64,000 nt of DNA from Candidatus Gastranaerophilales bacterium. GTDB lineage: Bacteria > Cyanobacteriota > Vampirovibrionia > Gastranaerophilales > CALOAD01. A model generated the notes under the pieces. It had not been told where the DNA came from. It saw only the letters and a program-made list of their open reading frames with translations, and made no database searches. Position 1 is the stretch's first letter. Each line of letters begins with the position of its first letter. The DNA is taken from positions 29,896-93,895 of the forward strand of contig CALOAD010000008.1 of assembly GCA_942491415.1 (NCBI GenBank), read 5' to 3'. Both the position numbers and the translations under genes were made by a program. This document shows, one piece after another, positions 4,651 through 58,548 of this stretch.

Positions 4651-5337
4651 TTATAAAAACGTCTCAATAAAAGAATCAATAAGCTTACTTGTATTTTCAG
4701 CTGCTCTTTCACAACATTGCCTTGCAATTACAGCCCAATCCTTTTTTCTATCATTAGAAATTTTAGGCATGCTTCTTGAATGCTCAACACTATCTGTAAA
4801 TAAATTTTTTGCAATCTCAAAAAAATCACCGCTAGTATTTGATTCACTCATTTTTATTTTTTGTTTAGACATTTTTCTTTGAGAGTTTTGAGCAAGTTGC
4901 TCAAAACTTAAATGCATTTTAGCTTCTATTACTTTTTGTATAAATGGAGCTTTTTCAGTGTGCAAAGGAACACTCATATCCTGTAAAAAATGTAATGCTC
5001 GACCAAATTGCTCAAAAGCCTCTGTGACCTTATTTTCTTTTATCAGTTCTGAAGCTTTTTTTAAATGTTCATTAAAACAATATTTTGCATTAAATTTATC
5101 ATTAAAATCTAAAAAACTTAATTTTGCACCTTTTTCAGCAGGTCCAAAATAAAAATGCTTATTTGCAAACCTACCAATTTCATCAAAATCAGGTTTTTGA
5201 ACAGCTTTTTCTAAGATAACCTTATTTTCAGCACTAATATATTTTCGCATATTTTTTATGGCTGTTCTTGTTAAAAGCGTATGATGCTTAAAATGCCAAC
5301 CAAAAGTTATGTTATTATGAGACCTAATATTATTCAA
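4651..5337 (-). CDS. Zinc-dependent phospholipase C-like fold protein (tentative)
   Basis: 228 aa. Order of W/H, PDFDE, KHFYFGP and GRALHFLQDMSVPLHT resembles the Zn-ligand layout of the clostridial alpha-toxin N-domain (GEAMHYFGDIDTPYH). No signal peptide seen. Confidence 0.5.
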   Translation of the reverse strand: MNNIRSHNNITFGWHFKHHTLLTRTAIKNMRKYISAENKVILEKAVQKPDFDEIGRFANKHFYFGPAEKGAKLSFLDFNDKFNAKYCFNEHLKKASELIKENKVTEAFEQFGRALHFLQDMSVPLHTEKAPFIQKVIEAKMHLSFEQLAQNSQRKMSKQKIKMSESNTSGDFFEIAKNLFTDSVEHSRSMPKISNDRKKDWAVIARQCCERAAENTSKLIDSFIETFL

Positions 5338-5446
5338 AATTCCTAACCTATATGTCTGTAGATTTATGTCGACTACTTATATATAAAACTATAATTGGGA
5401 AAATTAAATAAGTTATTACATGACTTTTAAGTAATCGTAACAAAAT

Positions 5447-6665: not shown

Positions 6666-6741
6666 GGGGGGTTAGCTCAGTTGGTAGAGCACCTGCTTTG
6701 CACGCAGGGGGTCAGGAGTTCGACTCTCCTATCCTCCACCA
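6666..6741 (+). tRNA. tRNA-Ala (anticodon TGC), CCA encoded
   Basis: Hand fold: acceptor GGGGGGT/ATCCTCC including the G3:U70 Ala identity pair, anticodon loop TTTGCAC, T-arm AGGAGTTCGACTCTCCT, A + CCA. Confidence 0.9.
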
Positions 6742-6742
6742 T

Positions 6743-6790
6743 AAAACTCCGAAATCTGCTTATGGTAAAGATTTCGGAGTTTTATTTTAT
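6743..6790 (+). terminator. Intrinsic terminator after the tRNA-Ile/tRNA-Ala pair
   Basis: 14-bp stem aaaactccgaaatc ... gatttcggagtttt followed by a T-rich tail. Confidence 0.75.
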
Positions 6791-6867
6791 AGCAAATACC
6801 TTTCCATTGCGCTTTTGAGGCTTCATGTGTTTTGATTGATTCTAGCAAGCTATTTTCCAAGGCATTA

Positions 6868-6914
6868 TTTATACACTTTTATGCATTTCTATACACTGCC
6901 CAAAAAACAAAAGG
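6868..6914 (+). repeat. Island direct repeat, copy R1 (matches the left half of R2)
   Basis: tttatacacttttatgcatttctatacactgcccaaaaaacaaaagg versus 8345-8390 tttatacatttttagccatttctataccttacccaaatataaaggg. About 37/47 identical by hand alignment. Confidence 0.7.
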
Positions 6915-6946: not shown

Positions 6947-8041
6947 TTATTCAAATAATTGTTTGTACTGTGGTGATAACTTATATTTTCTTGCTTTTTT
7001 AGAAAAATCTACCGCTTCTAAAAAACCTTCTTGATGCCATTTAAATGTAAGCTGTCTAGCACTTCTTGTTGAAAAATTAAAGAATAAAGCAACATCATTA
7101 CTTGTTATAATTTCTTGCTGATTGAATAAAGATAATATTTTTCTTTGCTTTGGATCAAGTTGCCTTAATAATGGTGATTGATCTATTTCGTTTTTGCTTA
7201 AAGCCACAAGAGAATGTTTTTCTACTTTGTCAAAAGCTTCTAGCATACCAATTATGAAATAGTTAACCCATTTAGTAATATCGGCTTCCGCTCTGCCCAT
7301 ATAATAATTATGAGAAGGTCCTATTGTAATAGCATCATAATAGGCAGAAAGATTTCTGGCATAATATTCTTCAAGCGAATATAAGCCTTTTAAATCATAT
7401 CCACCTGTATGTAAAACCAAAGTAGTTAAAAGCCTGGCAGTTCTTCCATTGCCATCATAATATGGATGTATTGTGGCAAATTGATAATGAGCAATAGCTG
7501 CAATTATAGGGCAAGGTATTTCCTCTTTATTTTGGTTAATCCAGCTAATTAAGTCTTTCATCAAAGGTGGAACGTCTTTAGCCTCTGGAGGCATATAAAC
7601 AATACGTCCTGTTAAACTGTCTTTTATTACATTTTGTCCATCCCTATATGGATTGGGTCTAATATTAGTAGAACCATTTGCACAAACAAGCGCATGAATT
7701 TTTTGTATTTGCTTTTCAACTAAAGGGTTATTCTTGATTGCTAATTTTTCAACTTCTGCTATTGCTGCATAATACCCTTTTACTTCACTTTCGTCTCTTT
7801 CTCTTCCGGCAATTTGCTTATTCTCTTTTATAACTTGTTGAACATCTTTTTGTGAAAGCCTATTGCCTTCAATCATTGTTGAATAATGTGTTGAATAAAG
7901 CTTTGCACTTTCTCGCAATCCTGCTAAAACTGAAGGGGTGATAGGCAAATTTTTAATACGCTCTTTTATTTGCTCAATCTTTATTAAAGCATTGGCAATT
8001 TGAGGTGTTATTTGATAGTTGGGTGAAAAATTTAACGGCAT
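6947..8041 (-). CDS. Fic/DOC family protein (class II, N-terminal inhibitory helix) with C-terminal winged-helix-like region
   Basis: 364 aa. Fic active-site motif HPYYDGNGRTARLL. Upstream S-x-x-x-E-G inhibitory motif in YSTMIEGN. Confidence 0.9.
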   Translation of the reverse strand: MPLNFSPNYQITPQIANALIKIEQIKERIKNLPITPSVLAGLRESAKLYSTHYSTMIEGNRLSQKDVQQVIKENKQIAGRERDESEVKGYYAAIAEVEKLAIKNNPLVEKQIQKIHALVCANGSTNIRPNPYRDGQNVIKDSLTGRIVYMPPEAKDVPPLMKDLISWINQNKEEIPCPIIAAIAHYQFATIHPYYDGNGRTARLLTTLVLHTGGYDLKGLYSLEEYYARNLSAYYDAITIGPSHNYYMGRAEADITKWVNYFIIGMLEAFDKVEKHSLVALSKNEIDQSPLLRQLDPKQRKILSLFNQQEIITSNDVALFFNFSTRSARQLTFKWHQEGFLEAVDFSKKARKYKLSPQYKQLFE

Positions 8042-8344
8042 AATATAAACTACTTTACTGTCATAAACCTGCCATTATTATGCCATTAAATTGCCGATAA
8101 ATCAACTACTACTTATTAGATTCTTTGTACGAAAAAGAGTTGATTTCTTCTGGATTGCAAGCGATACTTGACTTACGAATGCTAAAATGGGGAATCTCTT
8201 TGAGAAAGTTATTAGTTCGAGTGTTTCTACTACCACCATAAAAGACACATTTATTATGAATGTGTCTTTTATTATGTGAAACTCGCGCTGTGTGTGGGCT
8301 TTTCAAGACAGCCAATATCAAGCAATCTTTTTTTATTCCACGAA

Positions 8345-8423
8345 TTTATACATTTTTAGCCATTTCTATACCTTACCCAAATATAAAGGGTCAGATAGTT
8401 TAATAAAAACGTTCACTTAGTAT
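8345..8423 (+). repeat. Island direct repeat, copy R2 (full length)
   Basis: The left half matches R1. The right half ataaagggtcagatagtttaataaaaacgttcacttagtat matches R3 at 37/41. Confidence 0.7.
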
Positions 8424-8552
8424 AATAAAAAGGTAATCGAAAATTTTGGATTTTCGGAAATGTAAAAATCAACTCGGAAGATTTCCAAAACTAGATGATA
8501 ATTTTTTCGGTCCAGGGTTGTATATGTGAACTTTAAAATTCATGTTGAAATA

Positions 8553-10907: not shown

Positions 10908-11371
10908 CTGTTAGGTCGATAATATATGAATCATAGTTTTTGTTATCGCTGATTTTTTGCAGATTTATATTCATTTACTCCACTTGTAAGCCTTGTGCAT
11001 GCCTATTATAACGAAAAGATAATTCAAAATATATAATATACAAATAGTTATTACAAAATTATTTCATCTGCTTTATTAAGCTCCTCATTTGTATCTAACT
11101 CGATAATATTACCTTACACGCAGAAAAAAGGTCTAAATATGTTGTTTTGTGTTTTGCATCGATGAAGAGCAAACAAATATCGTTTGAAAGCCGTTCTAAA
11201 GCGTTTGAAATCACTCTAATAATCTTTTATGAGTTTAGACGTTGTAAATTGCTAAAAAACTCGTTCAACAGCTTCCTGCGATTTGAGTTGAGAAGTAAAA
11301 CCGTTCTCAAACTTCCATCATTTTCTGCAACCCCAAGCTATAATGCTAAAGCAGTGTAGAACAGGTGGCAT

Positions 11372-11710
11372 ATGAACAATCAAATTCTAAATGTGAATGA
11401 CAAATGGCTAGAGCTGAAAAAAGTTGCAGAATTAAAGAATGTAACCCCCAGAGGAATTCGCTTAGCAATTCAAAAAGGTAAATATATTTCACAAAGAGAC
11501 GTTGGTAATAGTTATAAAATATTACTTTCTAGTCTTGAACCTGATGTTCAGAACAAATATTTGAATGAATATTACATTAATATCGTAAGCTCTGAAACAT
11601 CACAATCACTTGCCATTATAGAAAATAAAAGACAAATTCCCCCTGTAAATACCCTGTTATTTAAAAATAAAAAGAGAATAGCACTACCAAAACTACAAGC
11701 ACCACCATAA
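11372..11710 (+). CDS. Small HTH DNA-binding protein, possibly an N-terminal fragment of a transposase/excisionase-like protein
   Basis: 112 aa. KWLELKKVAELKNVTPRGIRLAIQKGKY resembles the N-terminal HTH of Mu-type transposases and excisionases. Followed by a terminator. Confidence 0.4.
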   Translation: MNNQILNVNDKWLELKKVAELKNVTPRGIRLAIQKGKYISQRDVGNSYKILLSSLEPDVQNKYLNEYYINIVSSETSQSLAIIENKRQIPPVNTLLFKNKKRIALPKLQAPP

Positions 11711-11745
11711 AGCCGTCATCATTGCGATAGACGGCTTTCTTGTTT
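11710..11745 (+). terminator. Intrinsic terminator
   Basis: agccgtc ... gacggct hairpin followed by ttcttgttt. Confidence 0.6.
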
Positions 11746-11770
11746 GAAAAAGACCACTGTATGGGTGATT

Positions 11771-11811
11771 ATAAAGGGTCAGATGGTTTCATAAAAACGC
11801 TCACATAGTAT
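11771..11811 (+). repeat. Island direct repeat, copy R3 (matches the right half of R2)
   Basis: ataaagggtcagatggtttcataaaaacgctcacatagtat, 37/41 identical to 8383-8423. Confidence 0.7.
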
Positions 11812-11814
11812 TGA

Positions 11815-11968
11815 AAAAATAATTAGGTTATTTGAATTTCATAATAGTCCACACCCGTATCACAGAAAACATATTTTATGGATGTCGGGCATGTTTTTTT
11901 ATGTAGAATGCTAGTGCTTTAATGTCCTTGCCGTCTGACAGGCTGAGAATGTGATACTCTTTAGGCAT
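11815..11968 (-). pseudogene. Decayed 5' remnant of a PAPS-reductase-family gene (same family as P1-P4 at 48.9-58.5 kb)
   Basis: The minus strand from the ATG at 11968 reads MPKEYHILSLSDGKDIKALAFYIKK, then after a 2-nt loss MPDIH, then after about 8 nt lost YVFCDTGVD. Compare P2: KEYHILSLSGGKDSTALAFYIKENMPDIHEKIEYVFCDTGVD. Nucleotide similarity is visible across about 150 bp and is truncated at repeat R3. Confidence 0.75.
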
Positions 11969-13193
11969 TTGTAATCTCCCTGACTAAAGCCAATTGCTGA
12001 GGCTTTGAAAGCTTTTTAACAGCCTTATAAACACTATTTAAAACCTTGTCAAAATCGATTGAGTTCTTGCCTGTAAGATTTTCTAATCCTTGCGTTTTAA
12101 TAGCAATTTCTTTAATTTTCTGCTTAAAATCAGCAAGGTCATTATCGCACCAATCTTTTGGCACTCGCTTTTTATTCACTACGGTTGCAACTCTTTCTAA
12201 CCAACGATTATAAGGCAGGTCATCGATTAAGATATTATTAGCAAAAATCTTTAATTCATCATTTGAAATATATTCAAAGATATTTTTAAACTTAGTTTCT
12301 AATGCCTCTTTATCCGCTACTTTAATGCTTAGCGACTCAAACAAAAAGCTTTCAATCTCTTGTATAAGCGAGTTATAGCAAGAGTCCATTTCATCAAATG
12401 ATTGTTTTAATTCATCAATACTAAATCTTTTTAAATCTCTAAAAATAAGGGCGTGTGGTTCTTTGGCATTCATTATAATATTTCGCACTCGTTCTGTGGT
12501 TTTGGTTAGGATTGTGGTTTGTTTGGTAAATTTTTCCAATTCTCTAACTTTGACTACAATCCCTTTGACCAAGTGAAGTAGATTTGAAGTGTTTTCTTTT
12601 AAAAGAGTTTCTGATAAAAGCTCAATATACTTTCGCTTTTCACCATCAAAAATATTCTTTTGAAGCTCAAAGTTTTGAGGATTAGCCATTAGTCTATCAA
12701 ATAAAAGCGGAGTAATTTCTAGTGAAAAAGCATTTTTCTCATAAAGTGAAACTTTATCACCTTGCTTCAATAAAACATCAAGCAATAAAAGCGAAATAAT
12801 TGTTTTTGTCAGGCCGTATGGTTCACTTGATAGTTTTGTATAAAGCTCTTGGATATTCGATTTTACTTCAGCCCTGTGGATAAATATCTCAATTTCATCT
12901 CTAATGCATTTAATTTTAACATCTTTTCTAAAAAGCTCTTGAACCATTGCAAGCTCAACACTATTAGCTTTTAAATCTTTATCTTCAATTAAGTGTTTAA
13001 TTACTTCTCTAATAGCCTTAGTACCTGTTGCAGGTGGTTTATTCTGAGTTAAATATTCATTTTTAAAACTTGGGCATCTATCATATTTTTTGTCGAAATA
13101 ATTAGAAATCTCAGGTTGAGATAAATCCTCATCGCCTTCATATATTCTCGTAAAACCTGTTTCAATTAAATGTCGTTTTGCTAGTAGTGTCAT
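11961..13193 (-). CDS. Hypothetical protein (helical, 410 aa) directly upstream of the PAPS-reductase remnant
   Basis: Long ORF. Its stop at 11961-11963 lies 2 nt before the remnant ATG (11968). No motif I can name with confidence. Confidence 0.65.
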   Translation of the reverse strand: MTLLAKRHLIETGFTRIYEGDEDLSQPEISNYFDKKYDRCPSFKNEYLTQNKPPATGTKAIREVIKHLIEDKDLKANSVELAMVQELFRKDVKIKCIRDEIEIFIHRAEVKSNIQELYTKLSSEPYGLTKTIISLLLLDVLLKQGDKVSLYEKNAFSLEITPLLFDRLMANPQNFELQKNIFDGEKRKYIELLSETLLKENTSNLLHLVKGIVVKVRELEKFTKQTTILTKTTERVRNIIMNAKEPHALIFRDLKRFSIDELKQSFDEMDSCYNSLIQEIESFLFESLSIKVADKEALETKFKNIFEYISNDELKIFANNILIDDLPYNRWLERVATVVNKKRVPKDWCDNDLADFKQKIKEIAIKTQGLENLTGKNSIDFDKVLNSVYKAVKKLSKPQQLALVREITNA

Positions 13194-13251
13194 TAAAATT
13201 CCTTTCTTACATTTAGATAGTAGATGTAAGATAAAATTAATGACTATAAAT

Positions 13252-13503
13252 TTATTTATTTAAATCGCACCACTTTTTTTCTTCATTCCATTTCCAATTG
13301 TATTTTAGACAATTTTCTTTGGTTATTTTTACTTTTCCGTATTCAGTATTTACTTCTAACCCTTCAATACACTTGCCTGTATCCAAACAGTAATCTTTAT
13401 CATCAAAGAGTATAGTTGATCCAATAAAAATCAATATAATGGGAACTAAAATAATAATAAGTGATATAACAAATTTTTTCATAGTATTAATTTTATCATA
13501 CAA
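13252..13503 (-). CDS. Small membrane-anchored Cys-containing protein (candidate immunity/partner of the upstream gene)
   Basis: 83 aa with TM segment FVISLIIILVPIILIFIGSTILF followed by a 4-Cys ectodomain. Starts 9 nt after the MuF/SAA gene. Confidence 0.55.
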   Translation of the reverse strand: MYDKINTMKKFVISLIIILVPIILIFIGSTILFDDKDYCLDTGKCIEGLEVNTEYGKVKITKENCLKYNWKWNEEKKWCDLNK

Positions 13504-13512
13504 ATCAAATTA

Positions 13513-14169
13513 CTAATACTTATCAGGCAAGCCTTTAGGTCTTTCGCCTGGGTACATATCTCCGCAATCACCATCAGGATTGTCTTGTCCACATTCTCTA
13601 CCGGCTTTGTTTGCTTCCATATCTTCTTTAGCGTCTTCGATTTGCTCTATAAGGTCATAACCTTTAAATATTACATTATTTGCGCCTTCAATTAGCTCTC
13701 TGGCTAAACTGAGTGCTTCTGCAATTTTTTCCTGATCTCTTTGTGCTGCTTCGCAATTAGCCTTAAAGTGAAAATATTTATCAGCCCCAATAGTATTTGC
13801 TTCTTTCATGTCTTGATAATTTGAAGCAAAATCCCCTAGGGCATTATCCCAAGTTGCTATTTCTGAAATTATCCCGTTTACAGCACCTGAAAAAAATTCT
13901 CCCGCAGAAGATTGAAGTTCACTGACTAAATCACTTAACTCAGATTGAGCACTTTGAGTATCGCCTACAGCTTCATCAATTGCACTATAATCAGGCTCAT
14001 ACTCACAAGGTTGAGCATAAACTTCTTTTACTGCACAATCACAATTAGGATGAGGTCTATCAGGAGCATCTTCAGGATTCTTAAATTGAGTTCCGTTTAA
14101 TGCCTGACAAGCATCGCAAGAATCTCCACCTGCTTCCCATTCATAATGATCAATTATTTGTTCTTCCAT
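13513..14169 (-). CDS. Phage MuF C-terminal motif + serum amyloid A-like domain protein
   Basis: 218 aa. N-terminus: WEAGGDSCDACQALNGTQF...PHPNCDC (MuF/SPP1 gp7-type C-x2-C...HPNC-x-C). C-terminus: DMKEANTIGADKYFHFKANCEAAQR...ARELIEG...EANKAGR...PKGLPDKY aligns with vertebrate SAA [25 protein letters not shown]...ARENIQR...AANEWGR...PAGLPEKY, including the terminal GLP-x-KY. Confidence 0.8.
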   Translation of the reverse strand: MEEQIIDHYEWEAGGDSCDACQALNGTQFKNPEDAPDRPHPNCDCAVKEVYAQPCEYEPDYSAIDEAVGDTQSAQSELSDLVSELQSSAGEFFSGAVNGIISEIATWDNALGDFASNYQDMKEANTIGADKYFHFKANCEAAQRDQEKIAEALSLARELIEGANNVIFKGYDLIEQIEDAKEDMEANKAGRECGQDNPDGDCGDMYPGERPKGLPDKY

Positions 14170-14172
14170 TTT

Positions 14173-14718
14173 TTAGCTCCATTTCATTTTTAAATTATCT
14201 AAAACTTTATTTACTTTTCTTTCCGTATTAATCCTACGGTTATCTTTTGTGTCAAAAATTATATTATTTACTGCTCCACGCTTAATATATTTTTTAATAA
14301 CTCCTAGAGTGTAATGCTTTGATAGTTCAATTAATCGTGCTTTGGTTTTGTCTCCAAAGTCACCATCATATTTTACTTTCCAGCCTTTATTTGCAGCAGA
14401 AATAGCTTTCCCTTTATTTAAAAGATTAATACCCCTTTGAACATCCTTTATTGCTTGTTCTTTTCCAACATCTGCAATATGCTCTTCAATAAAGTTTAAA
14501 ATTTCTTGTGCTCTAGGACATGTCGCTAACTTGTGTTCTACTTCTTGTTTTGATGTTTCGACTTTTTGATTTTGCTGAACTTGTTTTTGACTTAATTCAT
14601 TGGAAAATGGTATTCCGCTACTACGCATTTGCTCCATAATTTCATTTTCTTTTGAAGAGAATTCATCTGATGTCATTTGGTCAATGAATTCTCGAGTGTA
14701 AATTCGTTTGTTTTTCAT
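14173..14718 (-). CDS. Hypothetical protein with peptidoglycan-binding-like motif
   Basis: 181 aa. VQRGINLL...YDGDFGDKTKARL resembles the PG_binding_1 signature (DG-x-FG-x-x-T). Confidence 0.5.
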   Translation of the reverse strand: MKNKRIYTREFIDQMTSDEFSSKENEIMEQMRSSGIPFSNELSQKQVQQNQKVETSKQEVEHKLATCPRAQEILNFIEEHIADVGKEQAIKDVQRGINLLNKGKAISAANKGWKVKYDGDFGDKTKARLIELSKHYTLGVIKKYIKRGAVNNIIFDTKDNRRINTERKVNKVLDNLKMKWS

Positions 14719-15158
14719 TTAATATTCCTTTCTATTTTATATTTTTTGCCATCAAATTTAATTAACCCCAATTCAAAAAATGGATTTTCAGGAGCATATT
14801 CTGAGTACATTTTTAGAAAGGCTTTAACGTCACGACTTATAGCTCTATCTGAAGCATCCTTAAATGTTTCTTTACAAGCTTCTATAAGCTTTTCCAATGA
14901 AAAAGAACTTTTCATTTTTGAAAAAGTAAACATCCACACCGGTAGTTCTAAAATCTGTTTATGCAGATTTTCAATACTTTTCAGGTCTTCCAAGTAGGGG
15001 TCTTCTTTTAAAATGCTTAAATCAAAAACGCTTTTCCAAAATTTTAAGCTATTGATTTTTGTTTTTCCAAGACCTGAATAATCTTCTTCTAGCATCCTTT
15101 TGAAATCTCTAAGGCAAGGATAATGCCCTTGGCTTCTGCCAATGGTGTTAATAGTCAT
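14715..15158 (-). CDS. Hypothetical protein (first gene of the island operon)
   Basis: 147 aa with a 4-nt overlap with the next gene. Preceded by two perfect palindromic sites. Confidence 0.55.
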   Translation of the reverse strand: MTINTIGRSQGHYPCLRDFKRMLEEDYSGLGKTKINSLKFWKSVFDLSILKEDPYLEDLKSIENLHKQILELPVWMFTFSKMKSSFSLEKLIEACKETFKDASDRAISRDVKAFLKMYSEYAPENPFFELGLIKFDGKKYKIERNIK

Positions 15159-15204
15159 TTGATTTTCTCCGTAAGTTCTAGTATAAAAATGTGGTAATAA
15201 TATA

Positions 15205-15220
15205 GTAAACTTCTGTTTAC
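15205..15220. promoter_or_regulatory. Candidate operator GTAAAC-ttct-GTTTAC
   Basis: Perfect 6+4+6 palindrome about 50 bp upstream of the start at 15158. Confidence 0.55.
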
Positions 15221-15250
15221 TTTTTTAGAATATCACATGACTTTATTTTT

Positions 15251-15266
15251 GTAAACCCTTGTTTAC
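15251..15266. promoter_or_regulatory. Candidate operator GTAAAC-cctt-GTTTAC
   Basis: Second perfect palindrome, 46 bp centre-to-centre from the first. Confidence 0.55.
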
Positions 15267-47156: not shown

Positions 47157-48917
47157 ATGAAAACTTTAAAATTCGGCTTTACCATAATTATTTTACTCTT
47201 TTTACTTTGGCTTTGTATTGACCATTTCTGGGGTTACAAGGTTTTAAAAGTTATAGATGGCGATACTCTCTATGTCGATCTAAATCGTAATAATAGGGCT
47301 GAAACGGAAGAAAAAATCAGAATAAAGTCTATAGATACTTTTGAAACAAAATATTCTTATCAATTATCAAAGCAATCAAGAAATTTTGGTATAACTAAAA
47401 AACAAGCTTTAGGGCTTGGTTATTTAGGCAAGGAATTTGCAAAGAAAAAGCTTTTGAATAAAAGAGTCAAATTGCAAATAGAAGGCAAAGGGGATTTTAA
47501 CAGAAAACTTGCTCATATTTATATTAACGGTAAAAACTATGAAAAATTAATCTTAAAAGAAGGCTTAGCTACTGTTTATAAACGTGCTGATGACGCAGAA
47601 AAATACCTGCAATATGAGAATACAGATAAAATAAAGCAAAATGCCCAAAAAGTCCAAAATTTAGACCTTGTGATATTGAATCTAAAAAACAACAAATATC
47701 ATAAACCCTACTGCAAATACGCCCGAAATATCAGCAGATTTGAGCTGGTAGAGAAGAAAAACCTGTCTCAAAATGCTAAAGAAGCAGGGTGTTGTGAAAA
47801 ATTAAAAGATTATAAGTCAAGTAAATTTGATGAAAAAATTTTTTTAAAAGATTTGGAAAAGAATAAAGCAGAAATGTTTTTTGTAAATCCAGTAAATGTT
47901 AAATATTCAGAAAATAGTTGTTTAAATTCGGTTTGTGGTTCATTATTAACCTTGATAAAAAGTGCTCATAAAAGTATTGATATAGCAGCCTATGGTTATT
48001 ACGGGCAAGATGATATTATAAACGCTTTAAGAGCTGCTAAACAACGAGGTGTAAAAATAAGAGGTGTTGTAGATGATACAACATACAAATTTTATCTTGA
48101 TACAAAAAAAGTACAATCTGAATTTGGATTTAAACAAGATTTTTTCACGCCAATTGGTTCAGGTAAAAAATTTAAATCAAAATTTACTCGGGAAACATCA
48201 GCATTAATGCATAATAAATTTGCAATTATAGATAATAAATATCTTTGGACAGGGTCAACTAATATTACAGATAGTGGAATGACAAAAAATGCCAATAATT
48301 CCATAGTTTTTTATTCTTCAGATATTTCTAATATTTACTTGCAAGAATTTAATCAAATGTACACAAATAATAAGTTTCATTCATTGAAAGATAAAATTTT
48401 AAATGCAAAAAATATAAAACTTAAAAAAGATTTCGATATATCGATTTATTTTTCTCCCAAGGATAAAGCTTTAAGGAATGCTGTAATACCTTTAATAAAT
48501 GAATCTACAGAAACTATAGAAATAATGATTTTTTATTTAACCAACAAAAAAGTGGTAAAAGCATTAGAAGACGCCCACTTTCGAGGTGTTAAAGTCAGAA
48601 TTATAATGGATTTTGAACCAACTGCGGAAATATATAGCCCAATAGATAGACTTAGAAAATTAGGTGTTTTAGTAAAAGCTGAGAATTGGGCAGGTAAAAT
48701 GCATATGAAAACAGCTATATTTGATAGAAAAAAAGTTGTGCTTGGTAGTACAAATTGGACTAGTACAGCAGAATATGTTAATGATGAAAATCTTTTAGTA
48801 ATAAAAAATCCAGTTATCACAACCAAAGTTTATAATGAATTTGAAAGGCTCTGGAATTCCATACCTGATAAATATTTAAAAATAAAAGCTTCAAAAAAAT
48901 ATTTTAAGAAAAAATAG
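47157..48917 (+). CDS. N1: membrane-anchored/exported staphylococcal-nuclease + double-HKD (PLD/Nuc-like) fusion, lacks the Cys-rich tail
   Basis: 586 aa. Anchor MKTLKFGFTIIILLFLLWLC. SNase motifs VIDGDT, IRIKSIDTFE, NRKLAHIY. YHKPYC...AGCC motif. HKD1 MHNKFAIIDNKYLWTGSTN. HKD2 MHMKTAIFDRKKVVLGSTN. Confidence 0.88.
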   Translation: MKTLKFGFTIIILLFLLWLCIDHFWGYKVLKVIDGDTLYVDLNRNNRAETEEKIRIKSIDTFETKYSYQLSKQSRNFGITKKQALGLGYLGKEFAKKKLLNKRVKLQIEGKGDFNRKLAHIYINGKNYEKLILKEGLATVYKRADDAEKYLQYENTDKIKQNAQKVQNLDLVILNLKNNKYHKPYCKYARNISRFELVEKKNLSQNAKEAGCCEKLKDYKSSKFDEKIFLKDLEKNKAEMFFVNPVNVKYSENSCLNSVCGSLLTLIKSAHKSIDIAAYGYYGQDDIINALRAAKQRGVKIRGVVDDTTYKFYLDTKKVQSEFGFKQDFFTPIGSGKKFKSKFTRETSALMHNKFAIIDNKYLWTGSTNITDSGMTKNANNSIVFYSSDISNIYLQEFNQMYTNNKFHSLKDKILNAKNIKLKKDFDISIYFSPKDKALRNAVIPLINESTETIEIMIFYLTNKKVVKALEDAHFRGVKVRIIMDFEPTAEIYSPIDRLRKLGVLVKAENWAGKMHMKTAIFDRKKVVLGSTNWTSTAEYVNDENLLVIKNPVITTKVYNEFERLWNSIPDKYLKIKASKKYFKKK

Positions 48918-49701
48918 TTATTAAACTTGAGGATAAATCAGTGTTTTCAAGCTTTTTTGTCATAGAATACTTTTCTTTTATTTTTTTTCTATTTTCTGGC
49001 TCTATAAGTTTTTTTAACGATAAATCTTTAATCCAATAAAAATAACCTTTTTTAATTTTGTCGTTATTGTAATATTCATAATTCATAGCTTTTTGAAATA
49101 ATTTTGGGTGGTTTTCATATAATCCGATCCATTCTATTTTTTTCTGATAAAAACAAAAATAACAACCGGAACGACTTCTCCAGTTGTAATAATCGGGGAA
49201 GCCTATTCCAGCTTTAGTTAATATATTTTCAATGTCTTTTTTTATGAGCCCTTTTTCCACAAAAGGAAAAGAAGCTTTTATATGCTCGCCGACACTTTTA
49301 TCGTTAGTAGCTCTATGGGATTCATCTGCTCTAATTCCTATATATAAATTTACGAGCTGTTTTTTTGAATTCTTTAGTTTGTCGAAAATATATTTATTAA
49401 AGGTTTTTGTTTTTAATTCAAAAGTACACCAACGATTATATTGAGTTGGTAAATATCCATTGCAATTAATCAAATGTTCAAAACTCTTTTCAGGCTTTAT
49501 TCGAGTGATTTTTTTATTTAAATAAACTTCTATTTTATTCAAATAATCATAAGTTTCAGGCAAATCACAACCGGTATCGCAAAAAACATACTCAATTTTT
49601 TCGTGGATTTCGGGCATATTTTCTTTTATATAAAACGCCAGTGCTGTAGAGTCCTTACCACCCGATAGACTTAGTATATGATATTCCTTTTCTTGTTCCA
49701 T
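48904..49701 (-). CDS. P1: PAPS-reductase-family PP-loop ATP pyrophosphatase
   Basis: 265 aa with SLSGGKDS, RWCTFELK, GIRADESHR and GCYFCF. Overlaps the N1 3' end by 14 nt. Confidence 0.88.
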   Translation of the reverse strand: MEQEKEYHILSLSGGKDSTALAFYIKENMPEIHEKIEYVFCDTGCDLPETYDYLNKIEVYLNKKITRIKPEKSFEHLINCNGYLPTQYNRWCTFELKTKTFNKYIFDKLKNSKKQLVNLYIGIRADESHRATNDKSVGEHIKASFPFVEKGLIKKDIENILTKAGIGFPDYYNWRSRSGCYFCFYQKKIEWIGLYENHPKLFQKAMNYEYYNNDKIKKGYFYWIKDLSLKKLIEPENRKKIKEKYSMTKKLENTDLSSSLITIFS

Positions 49702-50600
49702 GTAAAACTAACACTCCCAACGACTTTGTAAATATAAACAACTGTTTACTTTTATCAGGATAGCATATTTTTTTGTTTTGTAAACCCCTATATTCAGAAT
49801 CAGGTCTTTTTTTGAGGTTAATAAATCTTTAGCGGCAGGAATTTTAATATAAGAATTTATTAAAAGAACGTATTGCTTTTTACCGTCTTCTTTTTCATAG
49901 ACCCTAATTTTTGCAGATAAATCACAACCTTTTTGATAATATAATTGTATGAAAACTTTAAAATTCGGCTTTACCATAATTATTTTACTCTTTTTACTTT
50001 GGCTTTGTGTTGATCATTTCAAGGGTTATAAAGTTTTAAAGGTAATAGACGGTGATACTGTTTATATTGACCTAAATCGAAATAATAAGGGTGAAACGGA
50101 AGAAAAAATCAGAATAAAGTCTATTGATACTTTTGAAACAAAGTATTCTTACCAATTATCAAAGCAATCAAGAAATTTTGGTATAACTAAAAACAAGCTT
50201 TAGGGCTTGGTTATTTAGGCAAGGAATTTGCAAAGAAAAAGCTTTTGAATAAAAGGGTTAAGGTTGTTTTTGACGCCAACAGGTCAAAAGGTGACTATGG
50301 CAGAAAGCTGGCTCATATTTATATTAACGGTAAAAACTATGAAAAACTAATATTAAAAGAAGGATTGGCTGTTGTTTATAAACGTGCTGATGATGCAAAA
50401 GAATATTTAAAGTATGAAAACATAGAAAAAATAAAGCAAAATGCCCAAAAAGCCCGAGACTTAGACCTTGTAATACTGAATCTAAAAAACAATAAATACC
50501 ATAAACCTTATTGCAAATACGCCCATAATATTAGTAAGTTTGAACTGATTGAGAAAAAAGATTTGCCTAGGGATGCTAAACAAGCAGGATGTTGTAAGGA
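49500..50600. repeat. Conserved block B (P1 5' end + 247-bp spacer + N2 5' part); approximate edges
   Basis: Near-identical by eye to 52390-53500 and 55320-56415. Partial copies at 47127-47800 and 58300-58585. Confidence 0.8.
49734..49749. promoter_or_regulatory. Candidate operator aTAAAC-aact-GTTTAc upstream of P1
   Basis: 15/16 palindrome about 40 bp upstream of the P1 ATG. GTAAAC half-site at 49780-49785, with site starts 46 bp apart. Confidence 0.5.
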
Positions 50601-51822
50601 TTTGAAAGAGCCAATTATTTCTATAAAAGCAAACTATAGAATAAATAATCCGCCTAAAGAATTAAAATATTCAAAAAAGAATGAAATTGATACCAGCATA
50701 AAGTTGTTATTTAATAGTCCTTTAGTTTATAACGAATCGCCATCAGAAAAAAGCAAAACTCCTGTTGGAAAAACAATAATTGAAGAATTAAATAAGTTAA
50801 ATCATCAAGATATTTATATTGCAACTTATGGTTTTGCTTATCAACCTGAAATTGTAAATTCCTTTAAATATGCAGAAATTAGGGGTTATTCTCTTTTTGG
50901 TGTCGCTGATGTTGATATTCATAACAGAAGTATTTATCGAGATACTCATTATGTTATGCAACAAATAGGCAAATGGCAGACTGATCATAAGGCCAATTTA
51001 GAGCAACAAAAATATAGACCTAAATATAATGGAAGTATAATGCATAATAAATTTATAACCTTCGGCAAAAATAAAGTCTTAACAGGTTCTACAAATTTTA
51101 GCTCATCAGGAACAGGTGGTTTAAATGCTAATTTATCAATTTTGATAACTTCTCCCGTAATAACCAAAGCTTTTATCCAAGAAGCAAAGCAAATGTATGA
51201 GAAAAAATTATTTCACGAATTTAAAACACCTTACTATATAAAAAACGTAGAATTAGATGATAAAAGCATTGTTTCAGTTTATTTTTGCCCAAATCCTTTA
51301 GTTATTAATGAATTAGTTAAAAATATAGACAATGCAAAAAAATATGTTTATGTAGCAATGTTTTTTTTGACTCATAATAAAATCATTAATGCCCTTGAAA
51401 TTGCTAATAATAGAGGAGTAGATGTTAAGGTGATAACTGATGCTTCAGCAGCTCAAGAAATTTTTTCAAAACATCACAAAATAAGAGCTAAAAATATTCC
51501 TGTAAAAGTCGAAAATTGGACAGGTAAAATGCATATGAAAACTATTATTATTGATGATGAACTTTTTACGGTTGGTTCAATGAATGCTACAAAAACTGCA
51601 GAAACTAAGAATGATGAAAATATTGTTATCGTTAAAAACCCAAAATTAGCAAAAGAATTAAAAAATATTTTTAATCAATTATATATTTCTATTGACGATA
51701 AATGGTTAAAAGAAACACCATTAGCAGAGTCTTTTCAGTCCGGCAATTCTTGCAACGATGGTATTGATAATGACCACAATTGGAAATATGATAATCAAGA
51801 TAATAGTTGCAAAGTGCATTAA
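49949..51822 (+). pseudogene. N2: SNase-PLD paralog interrupted by a -1 frameshift in a poly-A run
   Basis: Track ORFs 49949..50203 and 50245..51822 together match N3 end to end. N2 has ctaaaaacaagc (A5, 50189-50193) where N1, N3 and N4 have A6. HKD1 also reads HNKFITFG (Asp replaced by Gly). Confidence 0.8.
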
Positions 51823-52589
51823 TAAAAGTCTAAAAGATTTGGTATGAAATTTTGAGTCTTAGGATTTTTTTTATTATTAGCTTTTATTTTTTCTATATTT
51901 TCAGGTAAAATAAGCTCTCTTAAAAGCATATCCATATTCCAACCAATTTTATTTTTGCCATCATCAATTTCATAAGACATAGCCTTTTCGAACAATTCAG
52001 GATTATTTTCTTTTAATCTTAACCAACTCATTTTAGTTTGATAAAAACAAAAATAACATCCGTTTCTATTGCTCCATTTATAATACTCAGGGAAATTAAT
52101 ACCATTATCAATTAATATTTTTTCAATATCAGGCTTGTTTAATCCAGCTTCTATAAAAGGATACAGTTGATTAACAAAATCTTCTCCCCCGTCAGGCTTT
52201 GATCGATGAGCCTCATCAGATCTAATTCCTATATATAAATTTAACTTTTTACAATTTTGATGAAAACGTTCTTTTTTAAATTTACTAAAAGGCTTTAATT
52301 TTAGCTCAATAGTACACCATCTTCTATGAGGAGCAGGTAGACACTTATAAATACTATATAAATGTTCAAAGCTTTTCTCAGGCTGAATATAAGTAATTTT
52401 TTTATTTAGGTAAACTTCAATTTTATTCAAATAGTCATAAGTTTCAGGTAGGTCCACCCCCGTATCGCAAAAAACATATTCGATTTTTTCGTGGATGTCG
52501 GGCATATTTTCTTTTATATAAAACGCTAATGCTGTAGAGTCCTTACCTCCCGATAGACTTAGTATATGATATTCCTTTTCTTGTTCCAT
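51819..52589 (-). CDS. P2: PAPS-reductase-family PP-loop enzyme
   Basis: 256 aa with the same motifs as P1. Its stop overlaps the N2 stop in TTAA (51819-51822). Confidence 0.88.
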   Translation of the reverse strand: MEQEKEYHILSLSGGKDSTALAFYIKENMPDIHEKIEYVFCDTGVDLPETYDYLNKIEVYLNKKITYIQPEKSFEHLYSIYKCLPAPHRRWCTIELKLKPFSKFKKERFHQNCKKLNLYIGIRSDEAHRSKPDGGEDFVNQLYPFIEAGLNKPDIEKILIDNGINFPEYYKWSNRNGCYFCFYQTKMSWLRLKENNPELFEKAMSYEIDDGKNKIGWNMDMLLRELILPENIEKIKANNKKNPKTQNFIPNLLDFY

Positions 52590-53500
52590 GTAAAACCAAC
52601 TCTCCCAACGACTTTGTGAATATAAACAACTGTTTACTTTTATCAGGATAGCATATTTTTTTGTTTTGTAAACCCCTATATTCAGAATCAGGTCTTTTTT
52701 GAGGTTAATAAATCTTTAGCGGCAGGAATTTTAATATAAGAATTTATTAAAAGAACGTATTGCTTTTTACCGTCTTCTTTTTCATAGACCCTAATTTTTG
52801 CAGATAAATCACAACCTTTTTGATAATATAATTGTATGAAAACTTTAAAATTCGGCTTTACCATAATTATTTTACTCTTTTTACTTTGGCTTTGTGTTGA
52901 TCATTTCAAGGGTTATAAAGTTTTAAAGGTAATAGACGGTGATACTATCTATGTCGATTTAAATCGTAATAATAAGGCTGAAACGGAAGAAAAAATCAGA
53001 ATAAAGTCTATTGATACTTTTGAAACAAAGTATTCTTACCAATTATCAAAGCAATCAAGAAATTTTGGTATAACTAAAAAACAAGCTTTAGGGCTTGGTT
53101 ATTTAGGCAAGGAATTTGCAAAGAAAAAGCTTTTGAATAAAAGGGTTAAGGTTGTTTTTGACGCCAACAGGTCAAAAGGTGACTATGGCAGAAAGCTGGC
53201 TCATATTTATATTAACGGTAAAAACTATGAAAAACTAATATTAAAAGAAGGATTGGCTGTTGTTTATAAACGTGCTGATGATGCAAAAGAATATTTAAAG
53301 TATGAAAACATAGAAAAAATAAAGCAAAATGCCCAAAAAGCCCGAGACTTAGACCTTGTAATACTGAATCTAAAAAACAATAAATACCATAAACCTTATT
53401 GCAAATACGCCCATAATATTAGTAAGTTTGAACTGATTGAGAAGAAGAATCTGCCTCAAAATGCCAAACAAGCCGGGTGTTGCAAGGGATTAAAAGATTT
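52390..53500. repeat. Conserved block C (P2 5' end + 246-bp spacer + N3 5' part); approximate edges
   Basis: See block B. Confidence 0.8.
52622..52637. promoter_or_regulatory. Candidate operator aTAAAC-aact-GTTTAc upstream of P2
   Basis: Same site as at 49734. GTAAAC half-site at 52668-52673. Confidence 0.5.
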
Positions 53501-54749
53501 TAAAAAGAATACTTTTAATTATAAAGATAATTCATTAGAAGTTTATTTTTTTGATCCTAATATTAACTATTTTAATCAGGCAAACGAGGGAAAATATGCT
53601 CTCATTAAAGCTATTAATGATTCAAAGAATAAATTGTATTTTGCAATTTATGGAATTTCAAACTATGACATTATGAATGCTCTTATAGCTAAATATGAGA
53701 ATGGTATTGATGTTCAATGGGTTACTGATATAAATAAATATGGAAAGAATAATTACTCTAAGACACATTTATTGCAGAAAAAAATCCATAATTTTAATAT
53801 TGATAAAATTGCTGAACAATTTAAAGCCAACCGAAATCAAAAATTTGAATATTATATTGACGGAAAGAAGTACACAAGAGAGTTTACTGATAGTCAAATT
53901 AAATATTTTACAGATCAATTAATGCATAATAAATTTTTCATTTTTGACAATGATTTAATTTCAACAGGCTCAGTTAATATGAGCGTATCGGGAATTGAAG
54001 GACAAAATGCAAATGATTTATTGATAATTAATTCACCTAAAATTAATCAAATTTACACTCAAGAATTTCAGCAGATGAAATCAGGTTTATTTCATAAACA
54101 AAAGAAAAAGATTAAGAACAAAAAACACTTAAAACTTGATAATGGCTTTAATATTTCTGTGTATTTTGCTCCTTATGATAATGATTTTATGCTTGATGTT
54201 ATTCAAATAATCAATGAAGCAAAAGATTTTATTTATATACCAATGTTTTTCTTTACGGATAAAAAAATCCCCCAAACTCTTATAAATGCTAAAGAAAGAG
54301 GCGTTGATGTTAGGGTTATACTTGATGCTACTTCAGCAGCAAGAAAATACTCAAAACACGAAATTTTAAGGGAAGCAGGAATAAAAGTTAAGGTTGAAAA
54401 CTGGGCAGGTAAAATGCATATGAAAGCATTAATTACAGAATGTTACGTGGTTACAGGCAGTTTAAACTGGACGAATAGAGCTCAGTTTTTTAACGACGAA
54501 AATTCTTTGATAATTAAAAATAAAAAATTATCTAGCATTTATAAAGAATTTTTCTTAAGTCTTTATGAGTCAATTCCCAATAAATGGTTAACTTTAAATC
54601 CAAGAGCTGAAAGCTGGGATAGTAAAGGCTCTTGTAAAGATGGTATTGATAATGACCACGATGGATATACAGATTTAAAAGATTTTGATTGTAGCAAAAA
54701 ATCCCCTCAGGGTGTTGATTTTGAAGATTATTATCATAAACAAAATTAA
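52836..54749 (+). CDS. N3: exported SNase + double-HKD fusion with Cys-rich DGIDNDHDG tail
   Basis: 637 aa. N-terminal 200 aa nearly identical to N2. HKD1 MHNKFFIFDNDLISTGSVN. HKD2 MHMKALITECYVVTGSLN (Asp position is Glu). Tail GSCKDGIDNDHDGYTDLKDFDC. Confidence 0.88.
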   Translation: MKTLKFGFTIIILLFLLWLCVDHFKGYKVLKVIDGDTIYVDLNRNNKAETEEKIRIKSIDTFETKYSYQLSKQSRNFGITKKQALGLGYLGKEFAKKKLLNKRVKVVFDANRSKGDYGRKLAHIYINGKNYEKLILKEGLAVVYKRADDAKEYLKYENIEKIKQNAQKARDLDLVILNLKNNKYHKPYCKYAHNISKFELIEKKNLPQNAKQAGCCKGLKDFKKNTFNYKDNSLEVYFFDPNINYFNQANEGKYALIKAINDSKNKLYFAIYGISNYDIMNALIAKYENGIDVQWVTDINKYGKNNYSKTHLLQKKIHNFNIDKIAEQFKANRNQKFEYYIDGKKYTREFTDSQIKYFTDQLMHNKFFIFDNDLISTGSVNMSVSGIEGQNANDLLIINSPKINQIYTQEFQQMKSGLFHKQKKKIKNKKHLKLDNGFNISVYFAPYDNDFMLDVIQIINEAKDFIYIPMFFFTDKKIPQTLINAKERGVDVRVILDATSAARKYSKHEILREAGIKVKVENWAGKMHMKALITECYVVTGSLNWTNRAQFFNDENSLIIKNKKLSSIYKEFFLSLYESIPNKWLTLNPRAESWDSKGSCKDGIDNDHDGYTDLKDFDCSKKSPQGVDFEDYYHKQN

Positions 54750-55522
54750 GCTAGTAATTCATTTAAATTCTGTTGAGCAGCTTTCTTTTTTGCTCTTTGT
54801 TCTTCAAGTTTTTTATACTTTTCTTTATAAAATTTGATATTTTGAGGTTTGCATAAATCTTTTAATCTTATTTCTTGTAGCCATCCAAGTTCTTTTTTTT
54901 CAAAATTCATTGCTTTTTTATAAAGATTCGGGTGATTTTCATAGAGCTTTATCCAATCAAGCGGATTTTGAAAAAAGCAAAAATAACAACTGGAACGTTC
55001 TTTCCATTTATAATAATCAGGCAATAATATTCCTGAATTCATTAAAATATTAACAATATCATTTTTATTTAATCCATTTTCTACAAACGGATAAATCCTA
55101 AAAAGATTTTCAGGATCATCGTAAATCCGCTTTGCACGTTGAGGTTCATCCGCTCTAAATCCAATATAATTATAAACTTTGGAATTATTTTCCAGCTTAG
55201 ATTTTATGTATTTTAAAAAAGGTAAAGTCTTTAATTCACTTGTGCACCAACGATTAGCTATGGATGGTAAAAATCCATTTGAAGATTCAACTAAATGTTC
55301 AAAACTTTTCTCTGGATGTATTCTTGTTATTTTTTTATCTAGAAAAATTTCTATCTTATTCAAATAATCATAAGTTTCAGGCAAATCTACACCGGTATCG
55401 CAAAAAACATATTCGATTTTTTCGTGGATGTCGGGCATATTTTCTTTTATATAAAACGCTAATGCTGTAGAGTCCTTACCTCCCGATAGACTTAGTATAT
55501 GATATTCCTTTTCTTGTTCCAT
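54746..55522 (-). CDS. P3: PAPS-reductase-family PP-loop enzyme
   Basis: 258 aa with SLSGGKDS, RWCTSELK, GFRADEPQR and SCYFCF. TTAA stop overlap with N3 (54746-54749). Confidence 0.88.
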   Translation of the reverse strand: MEQEKEYHILSLSGGKDSTALAFYIKENMPDIHEKIEYVFCDTGVDLPETYDYLNKIEIFLDKKITRIHPEKSFEHLVESSNGFLPSIANRWCTSELKTLPFLKYIKSKLENNSKVYNYIGFRADEPQRAKRIYDDPENLFRIYPFVENGLNKNDIVNILMNSGILLPDYYKWKERSSCYFCFFQNPLDWIKLYENHPNLYKKAMNFEKKELGWLQEIRLKDLCKPQNIKFYKEKYKKLEEQRAKKKAAQQNLNELLA

Positions 55523-58532: not shown

Positions 58533-58548
58533 ATAAACAACTGTTTAC
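58533..58548. promoter_or_regulatory. Candidate operator aTAAAC-aact-GTTTAc upstream of P4
   Basis: Same site as at 49734. GTAAAC-cctt at 58579-58588, as in the island site at 15251. Confidence 0.5.

Follow-up and report, generated by a model that had tools for sequence, protein, structure and literature searches.

The stretch of DNA analysed here, 64,000 nucleotides (nt) from a Candidatus Gastranaerophilales bacterium (we call it the window, always at its full length), carries on its minus strand, between 11.8 and 15.3 kb, the broken front end of a gene of the SspD type and, upstream of it, two open reading frames (ORFs) of 147 and 410 amino acids (aa), held apart by a cassette of three other genes. 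Four more genes of the SspD type, P1–P4, stand in an array at 47–58 kb. How did the fragment lose its rear end, how could the gene in front of it outlive it, and what do both have to do with the array? The 11.8–15.3 kb locus is a decayed copy of a three-gene module that is conserved in Gastranaerophilales. We write this module C-P-N, where P is the SspD-type PAPS-reductase-like gene, N is a convergent SNase/PLD nuclease gene, and C is a partner with SspB-like and SspC-tail parts; by definition, C lies directly upstream of P on the same strand, and N abuts the 3' end of P. The pieces of the locus are as follows:

11820..11968, minus: SspD-type PAPS-reductase 5' remnant, ~55 codons (blastn, tblastn, MAFFT, translation)
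11961..13193, minus: 3' part of C, 410 aa, an SspC/BrxC C-terminal tail without the ATPase, ORF intact, AAGGA ribosome-binding site upstream (PADLOC, homologue alignment)
13190..13207, minus: right copy of the repeat that brackets the cassette, AGAAAGGAAT-TTTAATGA; gives the 410-aa ORF its ribosome-binding site and ATG
13194..14714, minus: three-gene cassette, ~1.5 kb (Pfam/profile scans, comparison with other assemblies)
13252-13503, minus: 83-aa ORF with a hydrophobic N-terminal stretch
13513-14169, minus: 218-aa protein, MuF-tail and SAA domain
14173-14718, minus: 181-aa ORF
14715..14733, minus: left copy of the bracketing direct repeat (18-19 nt), AGAAAGGAATATTAAATGA; the 147-aa ORF stops and the 181-aa ORF starts within it
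14715..15158, minus: 5' part of C, 147 aa, an SspB/DUF4007-type DNA-binding segment (Pfam, PADLOC)

The SspD remnant and its split partner

The remnant is recognised by its likeness to its own paralogues. Compared with the minus strand of 12300..11500, each of P1–P4 gives one significant local blastn match at ~73% identity (72-74%): E is 6e-19 for P4 (101/137 identities), 9e-17 for P2, 1e-14 for P3 and 7e-12 for P1, and gaps of 2 nt and 8 nt occur in every one of these alignments. The search with P2 is significant at the protein level as well, where tblastn picks up the remnant in two frames (11974..11891 as residues 1-28, 68%; 11882..11838 as residues 35-49, 73%; joint E 1.7e-8), and three successive frames encode MPKEYHILSLSDGKDIKALAFYIKK, MPDIH and YVFCDTGVD. 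An earlier note on this DNA had described just such a decayed member of the P family, in these three frames with these two indels, and had let the homology stop at a repeat, R3; all of this holds, R3 (11770-11819) is real, and in a MAFFT alignment weak homology seems to go on, past a possible 7-nt insertion, to ~11822 and so to reach it. What is left amounts to ~55 of ~256 codons, and the PP-loop is degenerate (SLSDGKDI in place of SLSGGKDS; that is, SGGKDS has become SDGKDI). A pseudogene betrays itself by homology to its paralogues and by a broken frame, a truncation and a lost catalytic motif; the SspD copy at 11.8 kb displays them all and is a dead pseudogene fragment. Its ATG (11968-11966) lies 5' of the stop TAA of the 410-aa ORF (11963-11961), and the two ORFs overlap by 8 nt (ATGCCTAA), where the earlier note had placed the ATG 2 nt after the stop. 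No further P, C or SNase/PLD fragments were found in the window outside the 47-58 kb array.

The two ORFs upstream look very different at first sight and belong together all the same. The 410-aa ORF matches the SspC profile of PADLOC (E 3e-47), at positions ~740-1050 of ~1050 only, as well as BrxC (E 1e-11); the 147-aa ORF matches Pfam DUF4007 (E 7e-14, profile positions 82-196 of 288) and PADLOC SspB (E 3e-12), and coverage of the SspB profile, in this ORF and in its relative P0002 alike, is limited to positions ~82-200 of 288. P0002, a protein of 548 aa, is colinear with both ORFs (residues 2-127 with 15143..14769 and residues 135-548 with 13184..11964, at 52% identity each); the two ORFs are the halves of one gene, C. 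In a second protein, P0011, the N-terminal part is contiguous with the tail. The AlphaFold2 model of P0002 (mean predicted local distance difference test score, pLDDT, 82) has a sole low-confidence internal stretch, residues 129-155, which matches the point where the window gene is split; the split thus sits in what is predicted to be a disordered linker between domains.

The 181-, 218- and 83-aa ORFs between the halves show no Ssp similarity in PADLOC and profile scans. The 218-aa protein begins with the C-terminal Zn-ribbon piece of a MuF/SPP1-gp7 domain and goes on to a serum-amyloid-A-like (SAA) domain (Pfam SAA E 1.6e-18), and one of its homologues carries Pfam Phage_Mu_F. We read the cassette as toxin-like, with an SAA domain that may be the toxin domain, because the relatives of that domain, which is seen at RHS C-termini, include proteins labelled RHS repeat proteins by their sources. 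Cassettes of this type (~175 aa, then the 218-aa SAA protein, then a small ORF) occur in other assemblies beside Fic, Kiwa or recombinase genes or in unrelated contexts, and in those assemblies never inside a C gene. Here, a direct repeat of 18-19 nt, AGAAAGGAAT(A)TTAAATGA, stands on either side of the cassette and is the source of the ribosome-binding sites and starts of the 181-aa and 410-aa ORFs. The cassette is a secondary insertion into C. The arrangement of C and cassette is not peculiar to this assembly, because 15257..12904 (2.35 kb) recurs at 99.96% identity in the Logan assembly of run ERR9669565, which is possibly from the same sample.

Did C die along with its neighbour? Its halves hold 0 frameshifts or internal stops in 1671 nt, against 2-3 indels in the ~150 nt of the adjoining remnant; even at one tenth of the indel rate of the remnant, ~3 disruptions would be expected in C. 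Each half, moreover, has its own ribosome-binding site and start codon. A gene that stays open over such a length beside a broken one would seem to have been kept by selection after the death of its partner in cis, P.

As for what cut P short, the remnant ends among repeats that belong to a pair of tandem islands at a tRNA-Ala gene:

11770..11819, plus: repeat R3, 50 nt, 86% identical to 8382-8431, at the end of the SspD remnant
6736-6745 (the tRNA itself), 8233-8242 and 11702-11711, plus: direct copies of the tRNA-Ala 3' core CCACCATAAA
11372-11710, plus: 112-aa helix-turn-helix (HTH) ORF with a weak transposase N-terminal match

R3 has 2 copies only in the window (0 expected), and CCACCATAAA occurs thrice, always in direct orientation, where 0.05 would be expected. 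The copies of CCACCATAAA bound the two islands, one of which holds SoFic and the other a 784-aa SEC-C/NERD-like protein and the 112-aa HTH ORF, and arm repeats (D4, D2) pair 6867-6904 with 8344-8381 and 8382-8431 with 11770-11819. Direct repeats of a tRNA 3' end, by which a tRNA-linked island is known, are thus present; between 6.7 and 11.8 kb, no integrase was found. It is at the last arm repeat, ~110 nt past the outermost att-like copy of CCACCATAAA, that the SspD remnant breaks off, and the most economical reading is that a deletion tied to recombination at this integration hot spot would have truncated the gene. The earlier note, which had proposed that this locus connects the tRNA island with the array, is right on that point. 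An inverted 13-nt repeat, GGGTGATTATAAA (11763-11775, plus) and GGGAGATTACAAA (11968-11980, minus), brackets the remnant and R3, which its plus-strand copy touches, and provides a third site matching the 3' end of C; it may mark a microhomology or a place of recombination, or be due to chance, and the data favour neither.

The intact module in relatives

What kinds of protein are C and P where nothing has happened to them? In a search of 5.8 billion proteins, the 410-aa protein found 28 close homologues of 268-548 aa plus one weak match of 567 aa; those whose sources are named come from metagenome-assembled genomes of Gastranaerophilales/Gastranaerophilaceae, and none of the homologues in that search has the size of SspC (1000-1200 aa). 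A profile of C, run against 1.84 billion representatives, returned two tiers: an upper one at >=344 bits with proteins of up to 616 aa and a lower one at <=229 bits made up mostly of proteins of 1000-1200 aa, aligned over their last ~40%. Two proteins of the lower tier were checked, P0082 and P0086; both match the SspC profile of PADLOC from end to end (E 4e-270 and 0) and are full-length SspC, whereas the PADLOC alignments of the C family are limited to SspC positions ~580/720-1050. Most C homologues carry a different N-terminal winged helix-turn-helix (wHTH) domain, not the SspB-like piece. By these profiles, C is an ATPase-less derivative of SspC, to which the subtype of the window and of the P0002 contig (L001) adds an SspB-like N-terminal piece. 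A sequence search of the C family against Protein Data Bank (PDB) chains gave no match, and Foldseek of the AlphaFold2 model of C against the PDB gave nothing below E 0.49, leaving the SspC tail without a structural likeness. P, for its part, is SspD by profile (PADLOC E 5e-81 for P2, 1e-91 for the P of L001 and 1e-84 for that of L002), and the SGGKDS and CYFC motifs are present in P1–P4 and in the P genes of related loci. The only PDB match of P2 is an unpublished 'PptA' chain, 21fy_C (E 6e-7), on which we found nothing relevant in the literature.

On the L001 contig the three genes stand together: the 548-aa C is followed, with an 8-nt overlap, by a 295-aa SspD and then by a convergent 645-aa protein with an SNase and two PLD domains, whose gene overlaps the 3' end of SspD by 4 nt. 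The same trio is found around P0021 and P0023, on an IMG/VR contig and around P0017 (the intact loci are L001, L002/L003, L004, L041 and L042), and all 23 of the 23 complete P genes recovered have a convergent, abutting N. In two loci, L014 and L016, the units form arrays of the kind P-N, C-P-N, P-N, so that in L014 one C gene is present for three P-N pairs. At the C/P junction, the C-terminal codons '...N G/A stop' contain the ATG of SspD, with the 8-nt overlap; this geometry is common to the window, L001 and L004, and in this subset of loci the start of P may be translationally coupled to C. Measured against the definition of the module, the window locus keeps the adjacency of C and P and the 8-nt overlap, has a truncated P, and shows no trace of N within 8-12 kb of the remnant. 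Literature searches that paired SspD with PLD/SNase, or DUF4007 with the PAPS reductase in Melainabacteria, turned up no description of the C-P-N module, which is apparently undescribed and is a variant of the Ssp systems in gut Melainabacteria (Gastranaerophilales).

How regular is this company? Thirty GTDB species representatives with a C homologue were compared, 29 of them with enough flanking DNA to judge: SspD is directly downstream of C in 13/29, lies 1.5 kb off in 1 and forms an inverted pair with C in 1, and 14/29 are without P near C (in one of these, L020, a fragment of N lies directly before C). SspD also follows C directly in four further assemblies, and wherever the two adjoin, a convergent secreted SNase/PLD nuclease gene is present. 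In 15 loci with an orphan C gene, no P remnants were found downstream of it. Far from never standing next to a PAPS-reductase gene, an outcome for which the earlier note had allowed, the 410-aa type of gene is thus really and frequently adjacent to one. The suggestion that the 410-aa protein and its neighbours were alternative or ancestral partners of P is right in part: the protein is a genuine partner, found directly upstream of P in the intact relatives, but it does not belong to an alternative set, being the usual partner of this SspD clade and derived from SspB/SspC. Nor did P once have a different partner set here, for the third partner, the convergent SNase/PLD gene, is of the same type as the genes beside P1–P4.

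Some neighbours of the module deserve a word. In the other loci no tRNA genes stand next to it, and the position of the tRNA-Ala gene is not conserved. A homologue of SoFic (L004, 11660-12739, on the same contig as L029), 58% identical to window 6947-8041, lies directly after the N of an intact C-P-N, which hints that SoFic and the module may travel together. The 112-aa HTH ORF of the window resembles the replaced N-terminus of the C homologue P0017 (L042, 7001-8308), a protein encoded directly behind an IS110 transposase; it may be that such modules are disrupted again and again by a mobile element.

The array at 47-58 kb and the fate of C

The array and the split C gene are tied together, 35 kb apart, by their promoters:

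48904-49701: P1
51819-52589: P2
54746-55522: P3
57646-58500: P4
15205..15266, minus: promoter of C with two palindromic operators (motif search)
15266-15251, minus: operator GTAAACAAGGGTTTAC, overlapping the -35 TTTACA
15220-15205, minus: operator GTAAACAGAAGTTTAC, just after the TG-extended -10 TATTCT
49735-49787, 52623-52675, 55556-55608 and 58534-58586: matching architecture upstream of P1–P4
58429..58441, minus: probable relic of the C 3' end in P4, GGGCGATTATAAA, 11/13 to GGGAGATTACAAA at 11980-11968, just 5' of the second 'PKEYHIL' start

In the window, exact copies of GTAAAC-N4-GTTTA are confined to the DNA in front of the 147-aa gene (15205-15220 and 15251-15266) and of each of P1–P4, and the half-site GGGTTTACAAAA recurs at equal spacing and orientation in the promoters of C and of P1–P4; the earlier note, which had seen one operator type at both places, was right in this. 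The operator is found in 0/34 related loci and is lineage-specific. The P-N units of the array are without a C gene, and each keeps its own promoter. In L014 (Clostridium sp. CAG:768, a Gastranaerophilales genome), the 158-nt leader of C shares 92-95% identity with those of two P copies that lack a C, so that a control region common to units with and without C is recurrent. That leader (~75-160 nt, at 7526-7683, 5283-5357 and 11207-11364) has the complementary segments CTCTTGCC...GCAAGGAG and could be an unrecognised cis-regulatory RNA or an operator region; an Rfam scan of the window and L014 found tRNAs only and no known leader RNA in the shared promoter regions.

P4 has a further tale to tell. 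Its N-terminus is duplicated (58380-58500, minus), reading MEQEKEYHILSPSGGK, then EPQRGDYK, then PKEYHILSLSGGKDS, and its second start is of the 'PKEYHIL' type, as in the remnant. The match to the 3' end of C just before that start has a background of 2.3e-5 per position, and matches that good occur at only 3 sites in 128 kb (both strands). This suggests that the spacer carries a relic of the 3' end of C, that P4 once stood behind C, and that recombination deleted a C gene. The array as a whole, from 47157 to 58500, is a mosaic: its promoters and 5' ends have been homogenised (84-97% identity in P residues 1-65, 88-90% in N residues 1-215), whereas the 3' halves of P and N are old (39-51% identity). 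The divergences of P and N are correlated over 23 pairs (r 0.67, Mantel 0 of 2000), and the P-N pairs of the window are closer to pairs of other species than to one another, which shows co-inheritance and is compatible with, and no proof of, matched specificities. N itself starts with a hydrophobic signal or anchor, which in L014 is a classic Sec signal peptide, and its C-terminus matches the NCBIfam 'acidic double-disulfide repeat' model. One of the N genes, N2 (49949-51822, plus), is frameshifted near 50200, where the N3 query aligns in one frame with its residues 1-87 and in another with its residues 82-619; the 525-aa ORF with a TTG start listed there is therefore a truncated call.

How might these pieces fit into one history? 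Taken as a whole, the explanation that we favour, and hold to be likely, is that the locus is a decayed C-P-N copy, that the array descended from such modules, that C acts in trans, and that the chemistry is an Ssp-like modification. At 11.8 kb, P was cut off after about codon 55, at a repeat of the tandem tRNA-Ala island array, and then frameshifted; N was lost fully, and C was split in its linker by the 1.5-kb cassette. The deletion in P would have come from recombination at the integration hot spot. The four P-N pairs of the array would descend from the same kind of module after the loss of C, because P4 retains what may be the 3' end of a C gene, and a promoter and operator of the C type stand before all four. 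C would have outlived its P in cis since it works in trans with P1–P4, as a DNA-binding or scaffold subunit under a common repressor; for this function in trans we see roughly even chances. The split at a disordered linker, the start signals of each half, the operator shared with four intact P genes and the division of the homologous parts between two proteins in canonical Ssp systems are all consistent with it. By homology, P is a PP-loop ATP pyrophosphatase like those that activate the insertion of sulfur into the DNA backbone, and C would give DNA binding and a scaffold, with the translational coupling to P suggesting co-assembly. The least certain step is the last: an Ssp-like (phosphorothioate-type) backbone modification by P, targeted by C and tied to an exported N.

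Other explanations have to be weighed against this one. The earlier note saw an intact ancestor co-transcribed as an operon of six genes (147 aa, 181 aa, MuF/SAA 218 aa, 83 aa, 410 aa and PAPS reductase) with an alternative set of partners for P, and the ORFs are indeed tightly packed on one strand behind one promoter, with a single weak terminator-like site (inside the 218-aa gene), and are probably co-transcribed today. Yet the 147-aa and 410-aa parts form one 548-aa gene in the intact relative, P0011 agrees, homologues of the 181-, 218- and 83-aa ORFs lie next to C or P in 0/34 related loci, and the cassette stands by itself beside Fic, Kiwa and recombinase genes elsewhere; with one C gene and a secondary cassette, the six-gene arrangement is to be seen as a secondary state, and that it was ancestral strikes us as very improbable. 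We give as little credence to a decayed canonical sspBCD, in which 410 aa would be the tail of a ~1050-aa SspC whose ATPase half had been replaced by the cassette, and 147 aa a fragment of SspB. SspB, SspC and SspD are matched in the canonical order, each profile in part, as such decay would have it, but the closest homologues form a discrete family of 370-550 aa with the same boundaries in >=30 species, full-length SspC scores far lower (<=229 against >=344 bits), the 548-aa relative joins both parts directly by a short linker, and no sequence like the SspC ATPase was detected in the window. That the similarity is due to chance or low complexity, or the locus to a chimeric assembly, would be easiest to believe of an AT-rich genome (31% G+C) and a metagenome-assembled contig such as this; with E down to 6e-19 against a 5-kb database, colinearity at the protein level, a conserved junction geometry and the reproduction of 15257..12904 at 99.96% in another assembly, we find it scarcely credible.

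A more serious rival holds that the whole locus is dead, that the 147-aa and 410-aa ORFs are leftovers, open only since the cassette came in recently, and that P1–P4 work without C. C is physically split, its P and N in cis are destroyed or absent, and the array units do without C and have kept promoters of their own, all of which makes this quite possible, if on balance rather unlikely, in view of the undisturbed 1671 nt beside a 150-nt remnant with 2-3 indels, a split that falls in a predicted disordered linker, a ribosome-binding site and start codon for each half, the existence of the two homologous parts as separate proteins in canonical Ssp, the one C for three P-N pairs in L014, and an operator common to C and the array.

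Our preferred history, a decayed module whose C still serves the array, has its own difficulties, and we would rather state them together. The repeat on either side of the cassette overlaps signals for ribosome binding and for the start (ATG), and some of its likeness could be due to convergence; the relic in P4 is short, and its significance was judged post hoc. Both the cause of the truncation of P and the function of C and of its split halves are things that we infer. In 13 species (L006, L007, L010, L017-L019, L024-L028, L031 and L033), C is surrounded by housekeeping genes, such as those for a citrate transporter, OTCase, MatE and MscS, and has no P remnant beside it; its role may be independent of an adjacent P, or it may alternatively act on unlinked P-N pairs. 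The signal peptide or anchor of N and its disulfide/Ca-type repeats would fit poorly with a cytoplasmic restriction partner. Finally, the module contains no P-loop ATPase, which is reported to be essential (PMC12914056); P may do something else or depend on an unlinked ATPase.

One might go further and imagine C-P-N as self-sufficient and independent of any ATPase: C would target an SspD modification that marks self DNA against the module's own exported N, one C and one repressor would serve several P-N specificities, and here the split C would serve four pairs 35 kb away. N would then act in periplasmic or extracellular restriction, or in kin discrimination of DNA taken up, and the P-N pairs would be old and co-diverged. 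All of this together we regard as doubtful. A pseudogene beside a split gene is an ordinary thing; the interest of this one is that it is a fossil pointing to C, the missing third component of four SspD-nuclease pairs in the window, and to a module that has retained SspD together with those parts of SspB/SspC that bind DNA or form the tail, has discarded the P-loop ATPase and is wired to a nuclease predicted to be exported. Should C-P-N modify DNA, the minimal Ssp machinery would be redefined, and a small system of three genes would be at hand to try out in a foreign host; should it not, enzymes of the SspD family would have a second role, not yet known. The operator common to C and P1–P4 marks out a regulon that can be tested directly, and in the split C nature has set up its own experiment on whether the two domains of this protein can work apart.

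Comparison with known systems

The cassette inside C recalls the MuF-type polymorphic toxin cassettes of prophages, which Jamet et al. 2017 are said to have described. Like them, its 218-aa protein starts with the MuF/SPP1 gp7 C-terminal Zn-ribbon, ends in an SAA-like domain and is followed by a small hydrophobic ORF; unlike them, it has only the tail of the MuF domain, a phage context is not seen, and its toxic role, like any immunity function, is putative.

The module itself is to be set beside SspABCD, which phosphorothioates single strands with SspB (DUF4007) for DNA binding and nicking, SspC as an AAA+ ATPase and SspD as a PAPS-reductase-like ATP pyrophosphatase (PMC8092258, PMC12914056, PMC10853773). 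DUF4007/SspB is a tripartite HTH/wHTH DNA-binding module, and SspC/BrxC consists of an ATPase of the ORC/Cdc6-type AAA+ class followed by wHTH, alpha+beta, wHTH and a coiled-coil tail (PMC12839542, PMC10853773); the P-loop ATPase (SspC/DndD/BrxC) is reported to be essential for phosphorothioation in Dnd, Ssp and BREX type 4 (PMC12914056). C-P-N resembles SspABCD in that P is SspD by profile (E 5e-81 to 1e-91), C combines an SspB-like segment with the SspC tail, and the order is B-like, C-like, D, with the SspC-tail gene directly before SspD. It differs in having neither the AAA+ ATPase domain nor sspA, in fusing the B-like and C-like parts into one C protein of 450-550 aa, in its linked nuclease, an exported SNase/PLD protein instead of SspE or SspFGH, and in standing often in multi-copy P-N arrays, with the window copy a pseudogene. 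An SspC AAA+ ATPase-like sequence was detected nowhere in the window by PADLOC and the other scans, 13194-14714 included, and beside the module, the intact loci L001, L002 and L004 show no conserved gene for an ATPase; SspA, SspE and SspFGH are missing from the ORFs scanned around the window locus and from the same three loci.

BREX type 4 arranges related parts in another way, for its BrxP is a PAPS reductase fused to DUF4007, accompanied by BrxC, PglZ and BrxL (PMC12914056, PMC12839542). SspD-like and DUF4007 modules occur in both systems, and the BrxC tail is homologous to C (PADLOC E 1e-11 to 1e-21), but in C it is the BrxC/SspC tail to which DUF4007 is joined, not the PAPS reductase, and the intact loci examined have no PglZ, BrxL or ATPase (Pfam lists around C-P-N in L001, L002, L004 and L042 contain no PglZ, BrxL, BrxC ATPase or BrxP fusion). 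N, lastly, shares its two PLD/HKD domains with DISARM DrmC, DpdK and Helicobacter NucT (Pfam PLDc_2 E 1e-42; DrmC E 3e-21; NucT E 1e-17) and usually has an N-terminal SNase domain like that of the staphylococcal-type thermonuclease EcnA (E 3e-20); unlike any of these families, it is a fusion, extended by a signal peptide or anchor and, at the C-terminus, by acidic double-disulfide repeats, and it is always convergent with SspD (23/23).

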